Of a stretch of DNA of 46,630 nt, positions 10,428 to 46,200 are shown piece by piece. The position numbers and the translations under genes were made by a program. Numbering within the stretch: the first letter of the stretch is position 1; each line of letters starts with the position of its first letter. The notes under the pieces were generated by a model. It was given only the letters and a program-made list of their open reading frames with translations, searched no databases and was not told the origin of the DNA. Source of the DNA: Planctomycetia bacterium (GTDB lineage Bacteria > Planctomycetota > PLA2 > JAEUHO01). The stretch covers positions 1 to 46,630 of the forward strand of contig JANNRO010000063.1 of assembly GCA_031401505.1 (NCBI GenBank), read 5' to 3'.

Positions 10428-11123
10428 ATGGGATCGTGGCGCCCCACCCCCATGTACTCCATTGCTCGTACCTACGCGATTGTCACGCTACGCAGTCCGG
10501 GTGCCTGGTTCGTGGTGCTCGGGGCGGGGTTCCTTGCGTGGGCCGGCATCGCGCTCGACCTGTTTGGGTTCGACGGTTCCGAAGCCCGCTCCATCGGCGT
10601 GGTTGTCGGAACGATCGAGTTGGCGGTGGTGACGCTCGCGGTTCGCGCCCACACGACGGGAATCGCTTCCGCCGAGTCGGAAGGGTTCCAGGCGGCTCTC
10701 CGACACGGCGCCGGTCCAATTCCCGTCGAGCTGGGGCGCACCGTAGGTTCAGCAGCCGGGGCGTTTGCAGTGTCGATGCCCGCGACGATCCTAGTATTTG
10801 CTCTATACAAGTTATTTCCAAGTGAAGGTTGGGGAGGAGTCGGACTCCTGTGCATCGGGCTGGTCGGGGAGGCGTCGCTTGCCGCCGCCTGGGCCGGCTT
10901 CGCGTCCAAGCTCGCGGGACGAGTGGCTGCCATCGCCATCGCGGTGGGGGTGTTCATCGTGGCCCGGTGCAACATCCCCGTGTCCCTGCGGGCGATCCTC
11001 CCGGGGCCGCTACCGCTTTCGACGAGTGCGCTCACGGTGGCAGTGCTTGGCAACGCGCTCGCGACGCTCGGCCTCGTTCTCGCGACGATCGCACTCCCCG
11101 ACTCCGACACGGAACGCGCCTGA
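10428..11123 (+). CDS. hypothetical polytopic membrane protein
   Basis: 231 aa with about 6 hydrophobic segments. I recognised no family. It contains an odd AT-rich codon patch at 10790-10830. Confidence 0.55.
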   Translation: MGSWRPTPMYSIARTYAIVTLRSPGAWFVVLGAGFLAWAGIALDLFGFDGSEARSIGVVVGTIELAVVTLAVRAHTTGIASAESEGFQAALRHGAGPIPVELGRTVGSAAGAFAVSMPATILVFALYKLFPSEGWGGVGLLCIGLVGEASLAAAWAGFASKLAGRVAAIAIAVGVFIVARCNIPVSLRAILPGPLPLSTSALTVAVLGNALATLGLVLATIALPDSDTERA

Positions 11124-24149: not shown

Positions 24150-25616
24150 ATGCCTTCGAAGATCGACGCCCCGACCGACCTGTTCCCTCGCCTTCTGGAC
24201 GGGATCCGTCGGCGCATCTCCTCGCATCAGTTCGACACGTGGTTCGGCCGTGTCGCGCTTTCGAGCGTGTCCGACGGCGAGCTCGTCATCGCGGTTCCGA
24301 ACGCCTTCCACCAGGAGTGGATGGGAAAAGAGTTCAAGGGCGCGGTCCATCGTGCGGCGGCCGACGCGCTCGGACGCACGGTCGACGTGCGTTTCACCGT
24401 CGATCCCTCCCTGCGCGCCATCCAGCCCGTTCGGCCCCCGTCGCCATCGGAGGCGGAAGTCGCGGCGGCGTTCGTTCGCCCGGTCGGCGCTCCGGTTCCG
24501 CACGTCGGACACCCGACGCCCCACGCACCGAGGTCGTCGCCGGCGAAGCCCCTGCCGGCGCTCTCCGGCAGCGACGACCTGGCGGGGCCGTTTCCGATCG
24601 TCCTCGACCCGCGCTATACGTTCGAGAACTTCATCCTCGGGCCGTCGAATCAGATCGCGTACGCGTCGGCGCGTGCGGTCGCCGACAACCCGAGCCGCTC
24701 GACGAACCCGCTGTTCATCTACGGAAGCGTGGGGCTGGGCAAGACGCACCTGCTCCAGGCCGTGTGCCACGAGCTCCTTCGGCGCCACGCGGGCTATCGC
24801 ATCGTCTACCTTTCGTGCGAAGTGTTCACGAACCAGTTCGTGTATGCGCTCCAGTGCAACCGGCTCGACGCGTTCCGGGAGCGCTATCGCAAGGCCGACA
24901 TGCTGGTCGTGGACGACATCCACTTCCTGGCCGGCAAGGAACGCACGCAGGAAGAGTTCTTCCATACGTTCAACGCGCTCCACCAACACGGGCGTCAGGT
25001 CGTGCTCTCGAGCGACGCCCCCCCCTCCGACATCCCGACGCTCGAAGAGCGGCTCATCTCGCGGTTTCGATGGGGGCTCGTCGAGCGGCTCGAACGCCCG
25101 GAAACCGAGACCCGCATGGCGATCCTGCGGCACAAGGCCGACGCCGTGGGGTTGGCGCTCCCCAGCGACGTCGTCGAGTACATCGCGGCCAACGTGCGCG
25201 ACAACGTGCGCGAGATCGAGGGCGCGCTCGCGAGCGTGCGCACCCGATCGGAAGTCGAACGCCGACCGGTCGACCTGGCGCTCGCCCGCTCGGCGCTGGA
25301 GGCCACGCTCGCCAGAGAACGTCCGATCGTCGGCCTCGACCGCATCGTCGAGGTCGTGGGCACGCACTTCGGAGTCAAACCCGGCGACCTGAAGTCGTCC
25401 AAGCGAACCAAGAGCGTCTCGTTCCCCCGCCAGGTGGTCATGCACACGGCGAGGCGGGTCACGACGCTCTCGCTCGAAGAAATCGGCGACTATTTCGGTG
25501 GCCGCGACCACACGACGGTGCTCTATGCCGTCCAGAAAGTCGATGCCATGCTCCAGCGGGACGACGAGCTCCGATCGACGGTCAACACGCTGGTCGATCG
25601 GGTCCTCGCGCGGTAG
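24150..25616 (+). CDS. dnaA: chromosomal replication initiator DnaA
   Basis: 488 aa. It has Walker A GSVGLGKTHLL, Walker B LVVDDIHFL and the box VII/sensor region. The C-terminal DNA-binding domain is SLEEIGDYFGGRDHTTVLYA. Confidence 0.97.
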   Translation: MPSKIDAPTDLFPRLLDGIRRRISSHQFDTWFGRVALSSVSDGELVIAVPNAFHQEWMGKEFKGAVHRAAADALGRTVDVRFTVDPSLRAIQPVRPPSPSEAEVAAAFVRPVGAPVPHVGHPTPHAPRSSPAKPLPALSGSDDLAGPFPIVLDPRYTFENFILGPSNQIAYASARAVADNPSRSTNPLFIYGSVGLGKTHLLQAVCHELLRRHAGYRIVYLSCEVFTNQFVYALQCNRLDAFRERYRKADMLVVDDIHFLAGKERTQEEFFHTFNALHQHGRQVVLSSDAPPSDIPTLEERLISRFRWGLVERLERPETETRMAILRHKADAVGLALPSDVVEYIAANVRDNVREIEGALASVRTRSEVERRPVDLALARSALEATLARERPIVGLDRIVEVVGTHFGVKPGDLKSSKRTKSVSFPRQVVMHTARRVTTLSLEEIGDYFGGRDHTTVLYAVQKVDAMLQRDDELRSTVNTLVDRVLAR

Positions 25617-26214
25617 GTCACGCGAGGCGAGGCGCTTTCGGCGATTTTCGAACGTCTTCGAATCGGCGCCTTGGGCGTGTTCTCGGGATCCCCACAACCC
25701 ATGCCCGGCACAACTCACGGAATCAATTCGAGTTATGGCGTCTTTCCACATCCTCTCCACAGTTGTCGTGACATCGACTCCGGTCGCTTCGTGGGGGTCG
25801 ATCGAGGGCCCGACCACCGGATGCGGGGGGTACGAGCGTGCGTTTGTCGGGGAGAATTCGGGGGGAGTCGGCGGACGACTTTCGGGGTCTCGGCGGGATT
25901 CGAAGGGGCGTCGCTGCAGTTCGTCGAAATCTCCCGAATTCGCTCGTCCGGTGTCCCCCCTCCACCTACAATTTCCCACCTTGAAACAGAGCCGCCGGCA
26001 TCCCCCCTTGAATCGCCATAAGGCTTTGTAGAAAAAAGAGATACGACGTCTACGGAAGTTCGGTTCTCCACAAACGGACACCCCTTCTTACGACGATGAA
26101 TAAGCAGATTCTTCTTCTTCTCTCGGATTGGTGCAGATCTCCCGGATCCGTCCGTTCTTTCGGATCAATCCTGGCAATCGAACCGGTTCGGAGATCGATC
26201 CGAGGTTCTTCCTC
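25617..26214. other. candidate oriC (dnaA-dnaN spacer)
   Basis: The lowest-GC long non-coding stretch in the window. It has four same-orientation DnaA-box-like 9-mers: ATCCCCACA 25688-25696, CTTTCCACA 25742-25750, CTCTCCACA 25753-25761 and TTCTCCACA 26064-26072 (consensus TTATCCACA). AT-rich tracts lie at 26024-26043 and 26095-26125. Confidence 0.6.
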
Positions 26215-27327
26215 ATGAGATTTTCCATCGCCACCGCTTCGCTGCTCGATGCCGTCGGACAGGCGGCCAGCGTCGCTGCGACCAAGAGTCCCAAACGCAT
26301 CCTCGAATGTGTCGCGCTTCGGGCGAAGAAGGGCGAAGGCGTATCGGTCGAGGCCAACGACCTCGACGTCTCCATCCGAATCGTGCTTCCCGATGCCCGT
26401 GTCGAAGGCGACGGGGTCGTCGTGGTGCCGGCGTCGCGGCTCGTGTCGGTGTAGCGCGAGGTCGCCCAGGGTGCCAGCGAATAGACGTTGGTCGCGGCCG
26501 ATCAGCGTCTCGACATCGACACCGCCGACTGCCACTTTCGAATCCACGGGGACAATCCCGACGAGTTTCCGGCGATCGCCTCCTTCCCCGCGGTGGGAGT
26601 CCAGTCGCTCCCGCTCGGCACGCTGCGTGGCATGATCGATCGCACGCTCTTCGCGACCGCGCGTGAGCCCGGGCGGTTCGCGCTCCACGGTGTCCAAGTC
26701 CGCTTCGGTGCCGCCGAGGTCGAATTCGTGGCGACCGACGGGCGACGGCTGGCGCGGGTCACGCAGCCGGCCGGCAACGGCCCGGCGGTCGACGTACGTG
26801 TCATCGTGGGCACGAAACCCCTCTCGCTCGTGTCCCGCATTTCGACGGTCGCCGACGCGAAGGTCGAACTCGCGATCGAAGAGCGGCGGATCTTCTTTCG
26901 TTGCGGCACGACACTCCTCTCGTCGCGTCTGATTGACGGGAGTTTCCCTCCCTACGAGCAGGTCATTCCCGCGACGACCGGCAAGGGCTTCGACGTCAAA
27001 GCCGGGGAATTCGCGACGGCTCTGCGCCGCGCCTCGTTGCTCGCGACCAAAGACATGCAGTCCGTCGCGATGGAGTTCGCGACCGAGAAGTTGACCATCA
27101 CCTCCCGTTCGCCCGACGTCGGCGAGGCCAAGGTCGAGATGACGATCGCCTACACGGACACCCCCGAGAAGCTGGGTTTCAATCCCGTGTTCATCCTCGA
27201 TGCGTTGAAGGTGCTCGATCCGATTCGCGCCGTGCGTTTCGAGTTCACCAATCCGAAGTCTCCGGGCAAACTCTCCGACGGACAGGGCTACGTCTACGTC
27301 GTGATGCCCGTGTCGACGGCTGATTGA
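26215..27327 (+). pseudogene. dnaN: DNA polymerase III beta subunit (sliding clamp), full length but interrupted by two in-frame TAG codons
   Basis: The 371-codon frame aligns end to end with DnaN. TAG codons lie at 26452-26454 and 26482-26484, both in frame. The ORF track therefore shows two pieces: 26128-26454 and 26488-27327. Confidence 0.85.
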
Positions 27328-27763
27328 CCCACGTGACGGCTTCCCGATTCGATTCTCGGGCCGAGTTTCGGGGCACCTCCCGTCCCGCGAGCCCCGTCCC
27401 GAAGGGTGGCAGGCCTGCGCAGGCGATCGGCGATCTCGTCAGCGGCGCGCTGCGGGGCCTGGGCGTTCCCAGTCGCGCCGTGTCGCGTCGATTGAACCAG
27501 GCGTGGGTCGACGTCGCCGATCCGGCGTGGGCCGGGCGCGCGAGGCCGCTGCGTCTCTTCGGTGGCACGTTGGTGGTCGCCGTGACGTCGGCACCGCTTC
27601 GTCTCGAGCTGACCCAGTTCCACGCCGAGCGCCTCTTGGCCGCGCTGCGCGCCCGCCTGCCCAAGGACCCGATCACATCGCTGCGTTTCTCACCGGATTC
27701 CGAATCCGCGTGCGGGACGGGCGGCGACCCCATCAAGCCCGCGAAGCCACCCGAAGGACGTTC

Positions 27764-27767
<4 letters not shown>
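27324..27767 (+). CDS. DUF721 (DciA-like) protein
   Basis: The block RRLNQAWVDVADPAWAGRARPLRLFGGTLVVAVTSAPLRLELTQFHAERLLAALRARL fits the DUF721 pattern. The position between dnaN and gyrB is typical. The start overlaps the dnaN stop and the stop overlaps the gyrB ATG. Confidence 0.7.
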
Positions 27768-30439
<2,672 letters not shown>

Positions 30440-35486: not shown

Positions 35487-36152
35487 ATGTCCTGGGTCGA
35501 CGCCGCACTCTTGGTCGGGGCGTTCCTCGTGTCGCTCTCCGTTCACGAGTGCGCCCACGCCTGGACGGCGCTTCGGCTCGGTGACTCGACCGGTCACGCG
35601 CTCGGGCGCGTGTCGTTGAACCCCATCCGGCACATCGACCCGGTCGGAACCGTCCTGCTTCCCCTCGTGCTGGTGTTGGGCACCTACAGTGCGACGGGGC
35701 GGTACGGAACGCCGTTCGGCTATGCCAAACCGGTGCCTTACAACCCCTACGTGCTCAGGAACCCGGCGGTCGGGATGGCGCTCATCTCCGGCGCGGGGCC
35801 GCTGTCGAATGTCGCCCTGGCCGTCGGCTCGGCCGGGCTGCTCGGCATCCTTTCGCGGTCGGGAGGGTACGAGTCCACGCTCGGTCTGCGATTCTTCGAG
35901 GTCCTCGTGCTCGTCAACGTGCAACTCGCCATCTTCAATCTGATCCCGATCGCGCCGCTCGACGGCGCCGGCATCCTCGCGGGCCTGCTCCCGCGGGGGG
36001 CGGCGAACGTGATGCGCGGGGTCGAGCGGTACGGGTTCCTCCTCCTGATCGCATTGATGGCGACCGGGCTCCTCGGTCGGGTCGTCGGTCCCGTCCAGTC
36101 GGCGTTGCTCGACCCGCTTTCCATCCTGGCTGGGAGACCGCTCGGTGGCTGA
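35487..36152 (+). CDS. site-2 protease family (peptidase M50) membrane metalloprotease
   Basis: It has HECAHAW (HExxH), NLIPIAPLDG and multiple TM helices. Confidence 0.85.
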   Translation: MSWVDAALLVGAFLVSLSVHECAHAWTALRLGDSTGHALGRVSLNPIRHIDPVGTVLLPLVLVLGTYSATGRYGTPFGYAKPVPYNPYVLRNPAVGMALISGAGPLSNVALAVGSAGLLGILSRSGGYESTLGLRFFEVLVLVNVQLAIFNLIPIAPLDGAGILAGLLPRGAANVMRGVERYGFLLLIALMATGLLGRVVGPVQSALLDPLSILAGRPLGG

Positions 36153-37917
36153 CCTCGAAGCGAGCGGATTGCGCGTCGACCTCGACGCCTTCCAGGGCCC
36201 CCTCGACCTCCTCCTGCACCTCGTGCAGCAGGCCGAGGTCGAGATTCAGGAACTTCCGCTCGCGCGGATCGCCGACCAGTTCGTCAAGTACCTGGAGTCG
36301 GGGATCTCCTCGCTCGACGTCGACAAGGCCGGTGAATTCCTCGTCATGGCGAGCCATCTGCTCGTGATGAAGAGCCGCTCGCTCTTGCCGCGTGACGTGC
36401 CGGTCGAGGAAGACGAACTCGATCCGCGGCTCGACCTCGTGAAGCAACTTCTCGCCTACAAGCGCTTCAAGGATGCAGCCGGCGAGCTCGGCGGCTACGC
36501 ACGCGTGCAGGAGGGGCGGTTCTCCGTGCGGGCGTCGACCGCCGACGTCGAGACGCACGACGAACTGATCGAAGCCGACCTCTACGGGCTCGTGGCCGCG
36601 TTTCGAAAGCTCCTGCGCGAGACCGGCGACGAGGCGATCGTCGCGGTGTCGCGCGATCGACTCCCGATCACGCACTTCGTCGGGGTGATCTTCGAACGGC
36701 TGGTTTCGTCGGGGGGCTCGCTCGCGTTCGTCGATCTGGTGGGAGCCAGACCCGACCGCTCCTACATCATCGGCGCGTTCCTCGCGTTGCTCGAACTGAT
36801 CAAGTTGCGCAAGGTCCGCGTCGTCCAGGAGCAGGACGCCGACGGCATCCTCATCCAGGTGCGCGAGGAAGCGCTCCAGCCCGAGTCGGCCGTCGACCGC
36901 GATCTCGCTTCCGACCCGTTGACCGCGCCCAGGGAGGCACCCGGTGCCACGGGCCCTCGCATCGTGTTCATGGGCAGCCCGGAGTTCGCGGTGCCGGCGC
37001 TGCGCTCGCTGGCCGGCGCCGGCATGACGCCGGTGCTCGTCGTGACGCAGCCCGATCGCGAATCCGGCCGCGGGCGACGAACGAAGGCGACGGCCGTCGC
37101 CGACGCGGCGGCGGAGTTGAATCTTCCGGTCCTGAAGTCGGCCGACGTCAACAGCCGTGACGCGCGCGACGAGATCGGTGCCGCGACGCCCGACGTGATC
37201 GTGACGGCGGGCTTCGGCCAGAAGCTCGGAGGCGCGCTGCTCTCGCTGCCCGCGTTCGGGTGCATCAATCTGCACACGAGCCTCCTGCCCCGTTGGCGTG
37301 GGGCGAGCCCGGTCTCGGCCGCGATCCGCGAGGGCGAGCGCGAGACGGGCATCACGATCTTCCAGATGGACGCCGAACTCGACCGCGGGCCGATCCTTGC
37401 GCAGGCGGCGGCGCCCATCGGCCCCGACGACACGGTCGAAGACCTGACCACGCGTCTCGCCGAGGTTGCGGCCGACCTGCTCGTGCGTTCGTTGCCCAAG
37501 TTCGTGGCCGGGGAGTTGGTCCCTGTCGAGCAGGATCACGCCCGGGCGACGTACGTGCCCAAGCTCTCGAAGGACGACGGCGCGATCGCGTTCGACCGCC
37601 CCGTCGAGCGGGTCAAGGACCACATCCGGGCGATGTCGCCCTGGCCGCTCGCCTCCACGCGTTGGATGTCGCCGAGCGGACGCGAGCCCCTGCCGTTGAT
37701 CATCCATCGGGCGATCGTCATGGAAGGCGAACCGCTGCTGCCGCTCCCGGGATCGGGCCCGGGCTACGTGCTTCGCGCGACGAAGGACGGCATCGACGTC
37801 GCGTGTGCGGACGGCGTGCTCCGCGTCGTCAAGCTCCAGGCTCCGGGCGGCAAGCCGATGTCGGCGCGCGAGTTCTTGAACGGGCGTCCGATCACGACAG
37901 GGGACCGTTTCGGCTAG
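36145..37917 (+). CDS. scpA-fmt: single ORF encoding segregation/condensation protein ScpA (aa 1-~250) followed by methionyl-tRNA formyltransferase (aa ~270-590)
   Basis: ScpA blocks are FQGPLDLLLHLV, LPLARIADQF, EFLVMASHLL and AFLALLELIK. A ~30-aa linker follows. Fmt blocks are RIVFMGSPEFAVPAL, TQPDR.SGRG, NLHTSLLPRWRGASP and the C-terminal domain. There is no in-frame stop between the two. Confidence 0.85.
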   Translation: MADLEASGLRVDLDAFQGPLDLLLHLVQQAEVEIQELPLARIADQFVKYLESGISSLDVDKAGEFLVMASHLLVMKSRSLLPRDVPVEEDELDPRLDLVKQLLAYKRFKDAAGELGGYARVQEGRFSVRASTADVETHDELIEADLYGLVAAFRKLLRETGDEAIVAVSRDRLPITHFVGVIFERLVSSGGSLAFVDLVGARPDRSYIIGAFLALLELIKLRKVRVVQEQDADGILIQVREEALQPESAVDRDLASDPLTAPREAPGATGPRIVFMGSPEFAVPALRSLAGAGMTPVLVVTQPDRESGRGRRTKATAVADAAAELNLPVLKSADVNSRDARDEIGAATPDVIVTAGFGQKLGGALLSLPAFGCINLHTSLLPRWRGASPVSAAIREGERETGITIFQMDAELDRGPILAQAAAPIGPDDTVEDLTTRLAEVAADLLVRSLPKFVAGELVPVEQDHARATYVPKLSKDDGAIAFDRPVERVKDHIRAMSPWPLASTRWMSPSGREPLPLIIHRAIVMEGEPLLPLPGSGPGYVLRATKDGIDVACADGVLRVVKLQAPGGKPMSAREFLNGRPITTGDRFG

Positions 37918-42466: not shown

Positions 42467-42647
42467 GATGAACTCCGGGAGGCGCTTGACGGCGGGGATC
42501 CGCGGTCGTTGCGTGCCTCCCCTTTCACACTCGCCGTGCCGGTTCCGGGCCGAGCCGACGCAAGTCGTTGTGGATCAACGAGCTGCGCCGAATTCGCCGC
42601 TTCGACCGCATCGGGGGTACGTCCATTTTCCGAAACGCACAGCCCGC

Positions 42648-42676
42648 GTCAATCCCCTAGGGAACCTAGGATTGAC
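42648..42676. repeat. low-GC inverted repeat GTCAATCC(CC)TAGG-GAA-CCTAGGATTGAC
   Basis: 12-bp arms with a 2-nt bulge. It lies 7 nt past the TAA stop of the small ORF and ~180 nt upstream of the beta-helix gene start. Confidence 0.6.
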
Positions 42677-42682
42677 AAAGAC

Positions 42683-43051
42683 TTACGCTGCTTTCGGACT
42701 CGGGGGGGCGGCGGGGGCCGAGGGTTCGTCGGTGTCCATCGACATGGACGCCTTGTGGCGCAAGGGAAGGACACGGGGCCCGAGCCGCCGTCGGACCCTC
42801 TCCTCGAACTCGGTCCAGGCGAACGAAGGGGCGGGGTTCGCCCGGTCGTAGTCCCGGCGGACGAACGCGAGAAGCAGATCGAGTCGCTGCCGCGAGATTG
42901 CGGGAGCGCAACGAGGCCGGGCAAGCGCCGCCGAGGTCCTGGGAAGGATCGGGGCCCGATCGAGACCAACGGACAGCGCCTGCCCGAGCCAAGAGAGGAG
43001 GCACGACAGCGCGATTGCCGAGCGATCGAGCGGACGGGTGTGGTGAACCAT
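42683..43051 (-). CDS. hypothetical 122-aa protein
   Basis: GGAGG sits 6 nt upstream of ATG 43051. Third codon positions are GC-rich. It carries the only TAA stop among the CDSs called in the window. Competing overlapping ORFs in other frames lack an SD. No family recognised. Confidence 0.45.
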   Translation of the reverse strand: MVHHTRPLDRSAIALSCLLSWLGQALSVGLDRAPILPRTSAALARPRCAPAISRQRLDLLLAFVRRDYDRANPAPSFAWTEFEERVRRRLGPRVLPLRHKASMSMDTDEPSAPAAPPSPKAA

Positions 43052-43073
43052 GTCGAGCCTCCACCCCCGTAGC

Positions 43074-43088
43074 GCATGGCCCGTGCCC
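43074..43088 (-). promoter_or_regulatory. candidate sigma-54 (-24/-12) promoter
   Basis: The minus strand reads GGGCACGGGCCATGC, that is GGCAC-N6-ATGC with canonical GG-N10-GC spacing. It lies 22 nt upstream of ATG 43051. The predicted TSS falls on the SD, which weakens the call. Confidence 0.3.
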
Positions 43089-43154
43089 GAGTCGCCATTG
43101 TGGGGAAATCAACGCAGTTCGCGGCGAGTCATCGAGTTATGACTGCCCACCGAA

Positions 43155-43171
43155 TGTGGATATGTGGACAA
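43155..43171. repeat. tandem TGTGGA repeat (TGTGGATA TGTGGACA) in a low-GC patch
   Basis: TGTGGATAT and TGTGGACAA are each 8/9 to the DnaA-box complement TGTGGATAA. They lie ~70-95 nt upstream (minus-strand sense) of the candidate -24/-12 element. Confidence 0.5.
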
Positions 43172-43272
43172 CTCGGAAAACCGGGACCCACGACGGCCAA
43201 TCCCGACGAATTGCGACGCCGATCGACGAACGGGACCTTCGTCCGACCGCCCCGTGGATTCCCGCGCCAGCG

Positions 43273-46200
43273 TCAGCTCGCGGCGGGACCGCTTCGGTAG
43301 CGACGTGCGCGCGCTTCACCGGCCGAGCGAACTCGGCCCGTCGAGAGGAGATCGGACAGATCGCGGTTGACCGTACGGGCCGAGACACCGAGTTGGTCGG
43401 CGAGCTCTCCGGCGGAGATCCAGCGACCATCGGTCGCGCGGACGAGCGCATCGAGGCGGGGGGCGGCGATCGACGCCACGGGCGGCGGCGGTGCGATGTC
43501 GCCGCCACGGCGATGTCGGCGGCGTTGCGCGACGACGGCTTCGACCATGCGCGGGCCGATCTCGCCGCCCTCGGCGAAGACCGCCGACGCGCGGATCACG
43601 TTGTCGAGTTCGCGCACGTTGCCGGGCCAGTCGTGGGCCAGGAGCGCGGTGACGGCGTCGGGGTGAAGGCGAGCCTTTTCGGGCATACGGGCGGCAAGGT
43701 ATGCGGCAAGGAGGGGAATGTCCTCGCGGCGCTCACGTAGCGGTGGGAGATCGATGCGGACGACGCAGATGCGGTGGTAGAGGTCCTCGCGGAACCGACC
43801 GGCCGCGACTTCGAGGTCGAGGTCGCGCGAGCAGGCGGCGACGATGCGGACGTCCACGGCCCGGCTCTCCGAGGAGCCGAGCGGACGGACCGATTTGTCC
43901 TCGATGACGCGGAGCAGCGCGACTTGGAGCTCGACCGGCATGTCGGCGACTTCGTCGAGGAACAGCGTTCCTCGGTGGGCCTGCACGAACACGCCGTCTC
44001 GGGAGCGATCGGCGCCCGTAAACGCGCCGCGCACGTGACCGAACAGTTCGGAGCTCAGCAGACTCGGCGTCAACGCCCCGCAATTGACGGCCAAGAGCCG
44101 TCCGCGGTGCCGAAGGGAAGCGGCGTGGAGTGCCCCAACGACCATTTCCTTTCCCGTCCCGGTCTCGCCGACGAACAGGACGTTGACGGTCGTCTCGGCA
44201 ACTCGAGCGATCTGCGAGAGCACATCGCGCCAAACCTGGCTCTCGCCGACGAGGCCTTCGCCCGGGAGGCGCGCGGGCACGCGCCGGGACACGATGGATG
44301 CGAACGGGGAACGTGAAGGGGCGCCAGCGAGGGCGTCGGGTGCCTGCAGGTGGGGGATCGGAAGGGGGTCGGGGGAGGGCAGGGGGGACTTCTTCGCCTC
44401 CTCGATCGACGCGAGTCGTGCCGCGAGGAAGCGCAGCACGGTCCGAACGGCCTCGACCTCGCGCGAGGACAGCGGAACACGCTTGGCGATGCAGATGACT
44501 CCGTCGCCGAACGGGACCGCGAGAATTCCGCCGGGACGACGTTGCTCGGGCCGCCAGAACTCGGGACGTGCGCGGACCCTGATCGTGCGGAACTCGCGCA
44601 GCTTCCCGAGTCGTCGAATGCTCCACGTCGAAAGAGTGTGCTCCGCCTGAGGGCGCACGGACAGCCACTTCCTCCCTCGCTTGTGGAGAAGAACCCATCC
44701 ACCGACGAGTGCTGCCAACTCGCGGCCGACGCGGCGCTCGAACTGACTTGTGGCCGACGACCGTCCGAGGGTCACGAGCGCGTCGAGGGCGGAGATGGCG
44801 CGATCGGGCCGCGGGGTGCGTCGGACTCGCAGGCCCGCTGCGACCTCTGCGAGCGACGTGACGGGATCGCGGGTGGTGCGGGCCTTCGGATCGAGGGTGG
44901 CGAGGGCCTTGGCACAGCTCTTCGGGAACTCGGTGACGACGTCCGGCAGCGGCCCATCCCCCCGACGCCTGAGCCATCGCATCATGCCCCGGTACGCCGC
45001 GACGGCCCTGTCGAGGTCGAGCACGGCCTCGGCCGGGCGCCCGATGCGCAGCCACCCGTCAGCGAGGATTTGGTTGAAGACGAGCAACCGGGGCCAGGCC
45101 CGCTCACGCAGCAAGAGTGCTTGCTGAATTGTCAAAGCCTCGGCCAGATTGGAGGAATCCATCAGCGATACCGCAACCGCTTGGTCTTGGCGCGCGCGCA
45201 AGTGCTCAAGCGAAGTGTCTAACGCGAAGTGCGCTCGAGAGTTGGGGTCACGATGTGCTCGCCAGAGATCCAAGAATGCGCTATGGCTACCGAAGTACTC
45301 TCTATGATAGGTGAGAACGCTCGGCACATTGATGATTCCTCGCGAGTCGGCCCGTGCGCTATCCACCTGCAGGTACGACACCACCCGTCTGATATGGAAA
45401 ATCGCAAACGTGATCGGAAAACCTTGCCGCTGACATGCCGCATCCGCCAGTGGAGTGAACACCAAACGAGTCAGTTCCGCGAAGCGGTTCTCTCGATACA
45501 GGGCCAGAATGCGCCGGGTCACTAGGGCGTCTCGGCTCAACGATCGTGGCGATGCATCAGCTAGAAACTTGAATTGGACATCCGACGTGCTGCTGGTGTC
45601 CAAGAGGTGTATGCGCGCAATAGAGGCCATTGCTGTCGGTCCACCCAGACGGACGGCCGACGAAACCAATCGAGCGGCCACGCTCGAACTCATGTCCCCA
45701 CGAGGCGCGAGGCATGTTGTCACCCGAAGTGCCCAGTCTGACGCCCCAAGACTGTCGCCACGCAGCGCACTCCCTCGAAGCGCACGCATGGCGATCATGG
45801 CGCGATCGCCGCCGGTTCTCGCCCGATTGCAAATCGAGTGAAATAGTCTCACCTGGTACCGCCACGATGGGCTCACTTGGCGTTCCCAAGGTCCTCCTAT
45901 CCGGAGTAGTGCAGCAAACGACGAGTGATCGTGATTGCAAACCGCTGCGAGAAAGACGCGCACGAGCGGACTTATGACGCGCCGCCACGCGTCGACTCCA
46001 CACTCCGCTGTCGTTGCCCGCCGATGAACCGAAACGGGACGAAATTGGGGGCGACTGCGACTTTGGCCAATGAAGAGAATCAGCGCCGCCAGCGCCGGAC
46101 GAGACTCTTGAATTCGAGCTGCCGCCTTCGCGAGAACAGCGGCAAAGGCGGATGGGTGCGAACTACACATTCGAGCGCAGCGCGTCAACTTGGCCAAAAC

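Follow-up and report, generated by a model that had tools for sequence, protein, structure and literature searches.

Two in-frame TAG codons in the dnaN gene of a planctomycete contig are probably an error or a non-representative variant of the deposited sequence

Introduction

Leucine-inserting amber suppressor tRNAs of the E. coli supP/leuX type arise from tRNA-Leu(CAA), which reads TTG. In pyrrolysine decoding (pylTSBCD), UAG sites are found in methylamine methyltransferases and in a few other proteins. Reassigned stop codons are known from uncultivated bacteria and phages, for example from lineages that read UGA as Gly or Trp and from phages that read UAG as Gln; such a reassignment leaves its mark on the majority of genes and removes the codon from true termini. 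Apparent pseudogenes in metagenome-assembled genomes (MAGs) can also stem from minor variants or from errors in the consensus, and the usual errors there are homopolymer frameshifts.

We analyzed a stretch of 46,630 nucleotides from a Planctomycetia bacterium (assembly GCA_031401505.1, contig JANNRO010000063.1), which makes up a complete NCBI metagenome contig and is referred to here as the window, in which the sliding-clamp gene dnaN contains two in-frame TAG codons 30 nt apart. The locus resembles the MAG consensus-error and minor-variant pseudogenes in that one deposited assembly alone breaks a single-copy essential gene that is perfect elsewhere in its sequence, and in that near-identical DNA assembled independently has the gene intact. 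Unlike the usual MAG errors, the changes in dnaN are substitutions, and two such changes, alike in kind and 30 nt apart, that each give TAG point to a non-random process. As in supP/leuX suppression, the UAG codons replace TTG Leu codons of the wild-type allele; unlike that case, no suppressor tRNA was found in the window, and suppression would be far costlier here, where TAG ends 14 of 30 well-supported genes. With pyrrolysine decoding the locus shares a UAG within an otherwise intact open reading frame, but the dnaN sites are buried, conserved Leu positions, and the sister allele has TTG. With stop reassignment it shares in-frame stops in a conserved gene of an uncultivated organism; it differs in that dnaN alone is affected in the window and in the frequent use of TAG at gene ends.

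If the TAG codons were functional, they would be a rare natural instance of an essential replication gene subject to amber suppression, and possibly a snapshot of incipient codon reassignment. Our analysis does not support these exciting readings. The practical value of the case lies in pointing to a public MAG record that is probably wrong, in which the TAG codons would make dnaN appear in the annotation as a pseudogene or in two fragments and would lower marker-gene completeness. The approach works without reads: a contig is set against assemblies made independently from its own population, and the odd changes are judged by whether they fit the silent, transition-dominated variation seen there.

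Results and discussion

The dnaN gene is complete except for two TAG codons

The initial annotation described TAG at codons 80 and 90 of a dnaN frame without a frameshift. Translation bore this out and gave a frame of 370 residues followed by TGA (Table 1); the description held in all details open to a check. With both stops masked, the product matched three Pfam families above the gathering score, PF00712 at residues 1-121, PF02767 at 134-245 and PF02768 at 249-366, and residues 1-366 of the repaired protein aligned with solved beta clamps (best E-values 1e-39 to 1e-31). The gene has the three tandem clamp domains in about 370 aa and the chromosomal site beside dnaA that are expected of DnaN. 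The one feature of a clamp gene that the deposited contig lacks is an uninterrupted reading frame, which is found in the 99.86% identical Logan contig described below. The locus has the canonical order dnaA-dnaN-dciA-gyrB, as assigned by Pfam, and relatives keep this order.

Table 1 Features of the dnaN locus in the window
Feature	Position	Strand	Description
dnaA	24150..25616	+	DnaA_N, Bac_DnaA and Bac_DnaA_C domains; natural TAG stop at 25614-25616; synteny with relatives
dnaA-dnaN spacer	25617..26214	.	598 bp; at 25730 a silent G/A difference to the Logan contig
dnaN (beta sliding clamp)	26215..27327	+	370 codons plus TGA, broken by two TAG codons; three clamp domains
In-frame TAG, dnaN codon 80	26452..26454	+	A at 26453; T in the near-identical Logan contig (TTG, Leu)
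In-frame TAG, dnaN codon 90	26482..26484	+	A at 26483; T in the near-identical Logan contig (TTG, Leu)
dciA	27333..27767	+	PF05258; 144-aa product identical in Logan contig L008
gyrB	27764..30439	+	gyrB ATG overlaps the dciA TGA (ATGA)

The closest DnaN proteins in a large protein collection were 93, 92, 86, 84, 82 and 80% identical to the window protein, all of them uninterrupted and 370 residues long. Alignment with these 370-aa orthologues is free of gaps around codons 80 and 90 and shows equal length, in agreement with the earlier view that the frame matches DnaN end to end at the expected length. That view also placed both stops at hydrophobic positions, and this too holds: positions 80 and 90 are Leu in close orthologues and Leu, Ile, Val or Ala in distant ones, with the last three residues confined to a few of these. 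A comparison of the codon pair in related genomes had been proposed as a check. At the DNA level, all 11 related dnaN sequences encode Leu at both sites; codon 80 is TTG, CTT, CTG or CTC among them, and codon 90 is TTG in ten and CTC in the most distant one. Relative to the 86% identical orthologue, dnaN shows 123 synonymous and 25 non-synonymous codon differences and is therefore under purifying selection throughout. No close genome for this species was present among the GTDB representative genomes, where the best match was 69% identical, and an exact 46-mer with N at both TAG sites had no match in the JGI metagenome contigs.

A near-identical independent assembly has TTG at both sites

An exact-sequence look-up of the two DnaN fragments, of 79 and 279 aa, recorded them from NCBI only. 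Their 90% cluster includes a 370-aa Logan protein (P0131) that differs from the window DnaN only by Leu80 and Leu90. At the nucleotide level, Logan contig SRR20217205_2762801 (run SRR20217205, 2830 bp) aligns with window positions 24954-27783 without gaps, and 2826 of the 2830 bases are equal (99.86%). Its four mismatches are T for A at 26453, T for A at 26483, an intergenic transition at 25730 and a synonymous transition at 26664. This independent assembly consequently reads TTG at both sites, and the T>A changes are the single transversions from TTG that the initial annotation had pointed out. Within dnaN, the divergence from the intact sister allele amounts to 3 of 1113 bases. Besides the two mutated bases, 722 bases on the 5' side and 210 bases on the 3' side match the TTG allele exactly.

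We extended the comparison to six Logan contigs (L008-L013, from runs SRR20217205 and SRR20217196) against window positions 12103-37376. At identities of 99.85-100%, they contribute 17,043 aligned bases with 13 differences and no indels. Ten of the differences are synonymous, one is intergenic and two are T>A nonsense changes. The 11 silent differences are transitions in ten cases and a G/T transversion in one; the sole non-silent differences are the two transversions that make the dnaN TAG codons. Since all other differences are silent, the two TAGs lie outside the selected standing variation. Apart from them, the window DnaN is identical at the protein level to the intact allele, which agrees with the earlier impression that the pattern is unlike random decay. 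The silent-site differences between the contig and the Logan population amount to 0.065%, a very clean strain-level signature of purifying selection.

An intact dnaN allele is therefore present in near-identical DNA of public reads, and the two TAG codons are private to the deposited NCBI contig. The Logan reads and the contig very probably come from the same study. The Logan haplotype differs from that of the contig at 11 silent sites, so the Logan sequences prove an intact allele in the population or study, not a T in the contig's own reads. The initial annotation held that reads supporting sense codons at both sites would reveal an assembly error; the Logan assembly comes close to this, although it does not cover the reads of the contig itself.

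These data argue that the deposited sequence is likely in error at the two TAGs or shows a variant there that is not representative, and the likelihood becomes high once a real variant that is a dead end is counted as well. The dnaN gene of the organism itself is probably an ordinary, intact essential gene that has TTG (Leu) as its codons 80 and 90, and the TAG codons a non-functional state. The initial annotation had listed three options without choosing among them. We favor its artefact or clonal variant, for which the 99.86% identical assembly with TTG twice speaks; a second dnaN and amber suppression both lack support, as detailed below.

Both substitutions fall on the 3' T of a TT dinucleotide

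Under the favored explanation, two T>A substitutions would have got into the consensus either through an artefact or through a variant molecule that does not propagate. They could stem from a single read with both changes, duplicated or in a region of low coverage, from damage to a template that was then copied in library preparation, or from the assembler's choice of a minor haplotype that was a dead end. A point against an artefact is that the contig otherwise seems accurate, with no indels in 17 kb. Moreover, two random errors 30 nt apart are as improbable as two random mutations, and we therefore assume a non-random process of error or damage.

We observed that both T>A changes fall on the 3' T of a TT dinucleotide. 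Between positions 26440 and 26500 the coding strand has three TT dinucleotides, all of them in TTG codons, and a 3' T>A change gives a stop at each of the three; across the whole of dnaN, such a change at TT/AA sites yields a stop at 21 of 78. Bypass of cis-syn thymine dimers gives 3' T>A changes. A TT-directed A:T>T:A process, for example thymine dimer bypass, would yield TAG almost automatically in a G+C-rich stretch. Because the only coding-strand TT dinucleotides nearby are TTG codons, a process of this type would account for the fact that both changes are stops and that they are closely spaced. We infer an artefact or damage origin, with a TT-directed process as one candidate cause of both TAGs.

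Several more specific sources of error were considered and rejected. The two sites have the context TTGN5GGTC in common, which could suggest a motif-linked miscall or methylation; eight further occurrences of this motif are unaltered. A mis-join via paralogous or repeated sequence would need similar stretches elsewhere, and no similar 15-mers or 21-mers occur in the rest of the window. A 12-bp hairpin, AGACGUUGGUCG/CGAUCAGCGUCU, with two G-U pairs, lies at 26483-26518 on the plus strand; its first base is the mutated A of the second TAG, and this A extends the stem by one pair. At the second TAG, not at the first, a change templated by the quasi-palindrome is conceivable; as a cause of both TAGs the hairpin is rejected, since it accounts for one site only, and its position could be due to chance.

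The same substitutions could be a real, lethal or near-lethal double mutation present in a few molecules, which reached the consensus through low local depth or the path taken by the assembler. We regard this as unlikely, though it is the strongest of the alternatives. A single clustered event might lie behind it, for example when a damaged cell bypassed two thymine dimers in an error-prone manner, or the molecules might be relic DNA. The occurrence of one type of change twice within 30 nt, each time at the 3' T of a TT, fits it well, clustered changes of the same type being what one patch of error-prone synthesis typically leaves, and so does the remaining variation, which is all selected and silent. 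The length of the contig (46 kb) speaks against a very low depth. In the assembled sequence, a mutation of this kind and an in vitro artefact look the same when judged without reads, and their consequences overlap, as the gene state is non-functional in both.

TAG is an ordinary terminator in the window

The initial annotation regarded TAG as a normal terminator in this DNA, dnaA included, and counted it at 17 of 39 gene ends. That count is about right. The window has a G+C content of 64-73%, and 39 crude gene calls based on codon-position G+C end in TAG (16), TGA (22) and TAA (1). In 30 well-supported genes the terminators are TAG in 14, dnaA among them, TGA in 16 and TAA in none. This is a very high frequency of TAG termini for a genome of 68% G+C; in E. 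coli, TAG ends roughly 7-8% of genes. Read-through at the 14 well-supported TAG ends would add between 9 and 750 residues, with extensions beyond 90 residues for 8 of them. The 14 genes have no back-up stops nearby, and relatives share their termini.

We tested every stop codon in the window for a coding signal that goes on in the same frame on either side. The scan returned the two dnaN TAGs, two junctions at 11121 (TGA) and 37915 (TAG), and an antisense-frame artefact inside gyrB. By Pfam, both junctions are ordinary boundaries between separate genes and were discarded as in-frame stops. By this coding-signal scan, no other gene in the 46.6-kb window has an in-frame TAG. The 46.6-kb window contains no tRNA genes, hence no tRNA with a CUA anticodon, and it yielded no match to an Rfam family. 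The predicted RNA fold around the two dnaN TAGs is not unusual (z = -1.2).

These results bear on the possibility that the TAG allele is real and that UAG is partly read as Leu by a suppressor tRNA, for example a tRNA-Leu(CAA) changed to CUA, whose gene would lie on a mobile element or in another part of the genome. Both stops stand at TTG Leu codons, exactly the codons that a CAA>CUA Leu suppressor would rescue; if TAG stood for Leu, the 13 differences between the window and the sister haplotypes would all be silent, and the remainder of dnaN is pristine. However, the window offers neither a tRNA or Rfam RNA nor a special structure, no further in-frame TAG occurs in 46 kb, and a suppressor able to pass two ambers in dnaN would harm much of the proteome by extending proteins at the frequent TAG ends. 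In addition, the sister strain at ~99.9% identity has TTG, which leaves no time for evolution around the sites, and the TAG allele is recorded from a single NCBI contig only. We consider such decoding very improbable. The chance is just as slim that we are looking at a wild planctomycete with a Leu-inserting amber suppressor that tolerates two TTG>TAG changes in dnaN, with partial decoding of UAG as Leu at its very beginning. The proposal of amber suppression or programmed read-through in the initial annotation thus finds no positive evidence in the window, where TAG ends nearly half of the genes.

Other forms of decoding can be treated more briefly. Reassignment of UAG was rejected, as it would need in-frame UAG in many conserved genes, of which dnaN alone is affected in the window, and a UAG that is rare or absent at true gene ends, where TAG is in fact common. 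A programmed read-through element was rejected on the unremarkable fold and on flanks that are the same as in the TTG allele. As to pyrrolysine, which would call for pylT, pylS/pylBCD and UAG at Pyl-specific sites, the tRNA and Rfam searches of the window had no match, Pfam covered nine window proteins, and the two dnaN sites are conserved Leu positions.

A second clamp gene and a split clamp find no support

A decaying dnaN copy complemented by a second one had also been proposed. Here the TAG allele would be real, with dnaN freshly inactivated and its role taken over by another clamp gene, either a paralogue or a gene borne on a plasmid or prophage. Internal stops without further lesions would fit a very recent pseudogene. 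The affected copy, however, is the one at the canonical locus, intact in every relative compared, and it carries no other lesion. With 3 of 1113 bases diverged, the probability that at least two of three random substitutions in dnaN are nonsense is ~5e-4 to 1e-3, and it is far lower for two TTG>TAG changes; for neutral changes after inactivation it is likewise ~1e-3 or less. Random neutral decay of dnaN is very unlikely on these figures. Moreover, no second close DnaN type occurs among the matches in the protein collection, which carry no genomic context. We judge a takeover by a second clamp gene to be highly doubtful.

A functional split clamp had been thought unlikely, and we infer that a re-initiated clamp (residues 1-79 plus 92-370) can be rejected, as it would lack residues 80-91, which belong to the domain I core, and the restart would depend on a lone TTG without a Shine-Dalgarno (SD) sequence: the sole in-frame start shortly after the second TAG is the TTG at 26488, and the letters upstream of it, GGTGCCAGCGAATAGACG, contain no SD-like purine run.

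Further features of the locus and the window

The dnaA-dnaN spacer is unusually long and belongs to the parts of the window with the lowest G+C (~0.64). In three relatives (L001, L004 and L014) the spacer measures ~560-580 bp. We counted six DnaA-box-like 9-mers (TTATCCACA, at most one mismatch) in the window, against 1.15 expected. Only one of them lies inside the spacer, at 26064; four lie at 42569-44690, including an abutting pair at 43155-43171, and represent candidate boxes.

The stop codon of dciA and the start codon of gyrB overlap as ATGA at 27764-27767, and the same arrangement is found in relatives. The longest-ORF call of gyrB, which begins with a GTG at 27503, is therefore ~87 codons too long. 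Downstream of this locus, a single 590-aa open reading frame at 36145-37917 on the plus strand combines a ScpA domain (residues 26-238) with Formyl_trans_N and Formyl_trans_C domains (residues 272-581). This fusion of ScpA with a methionyl-tRNA formyltransferase is also called in a 78% identical relative (L004), where it has 587 aa.
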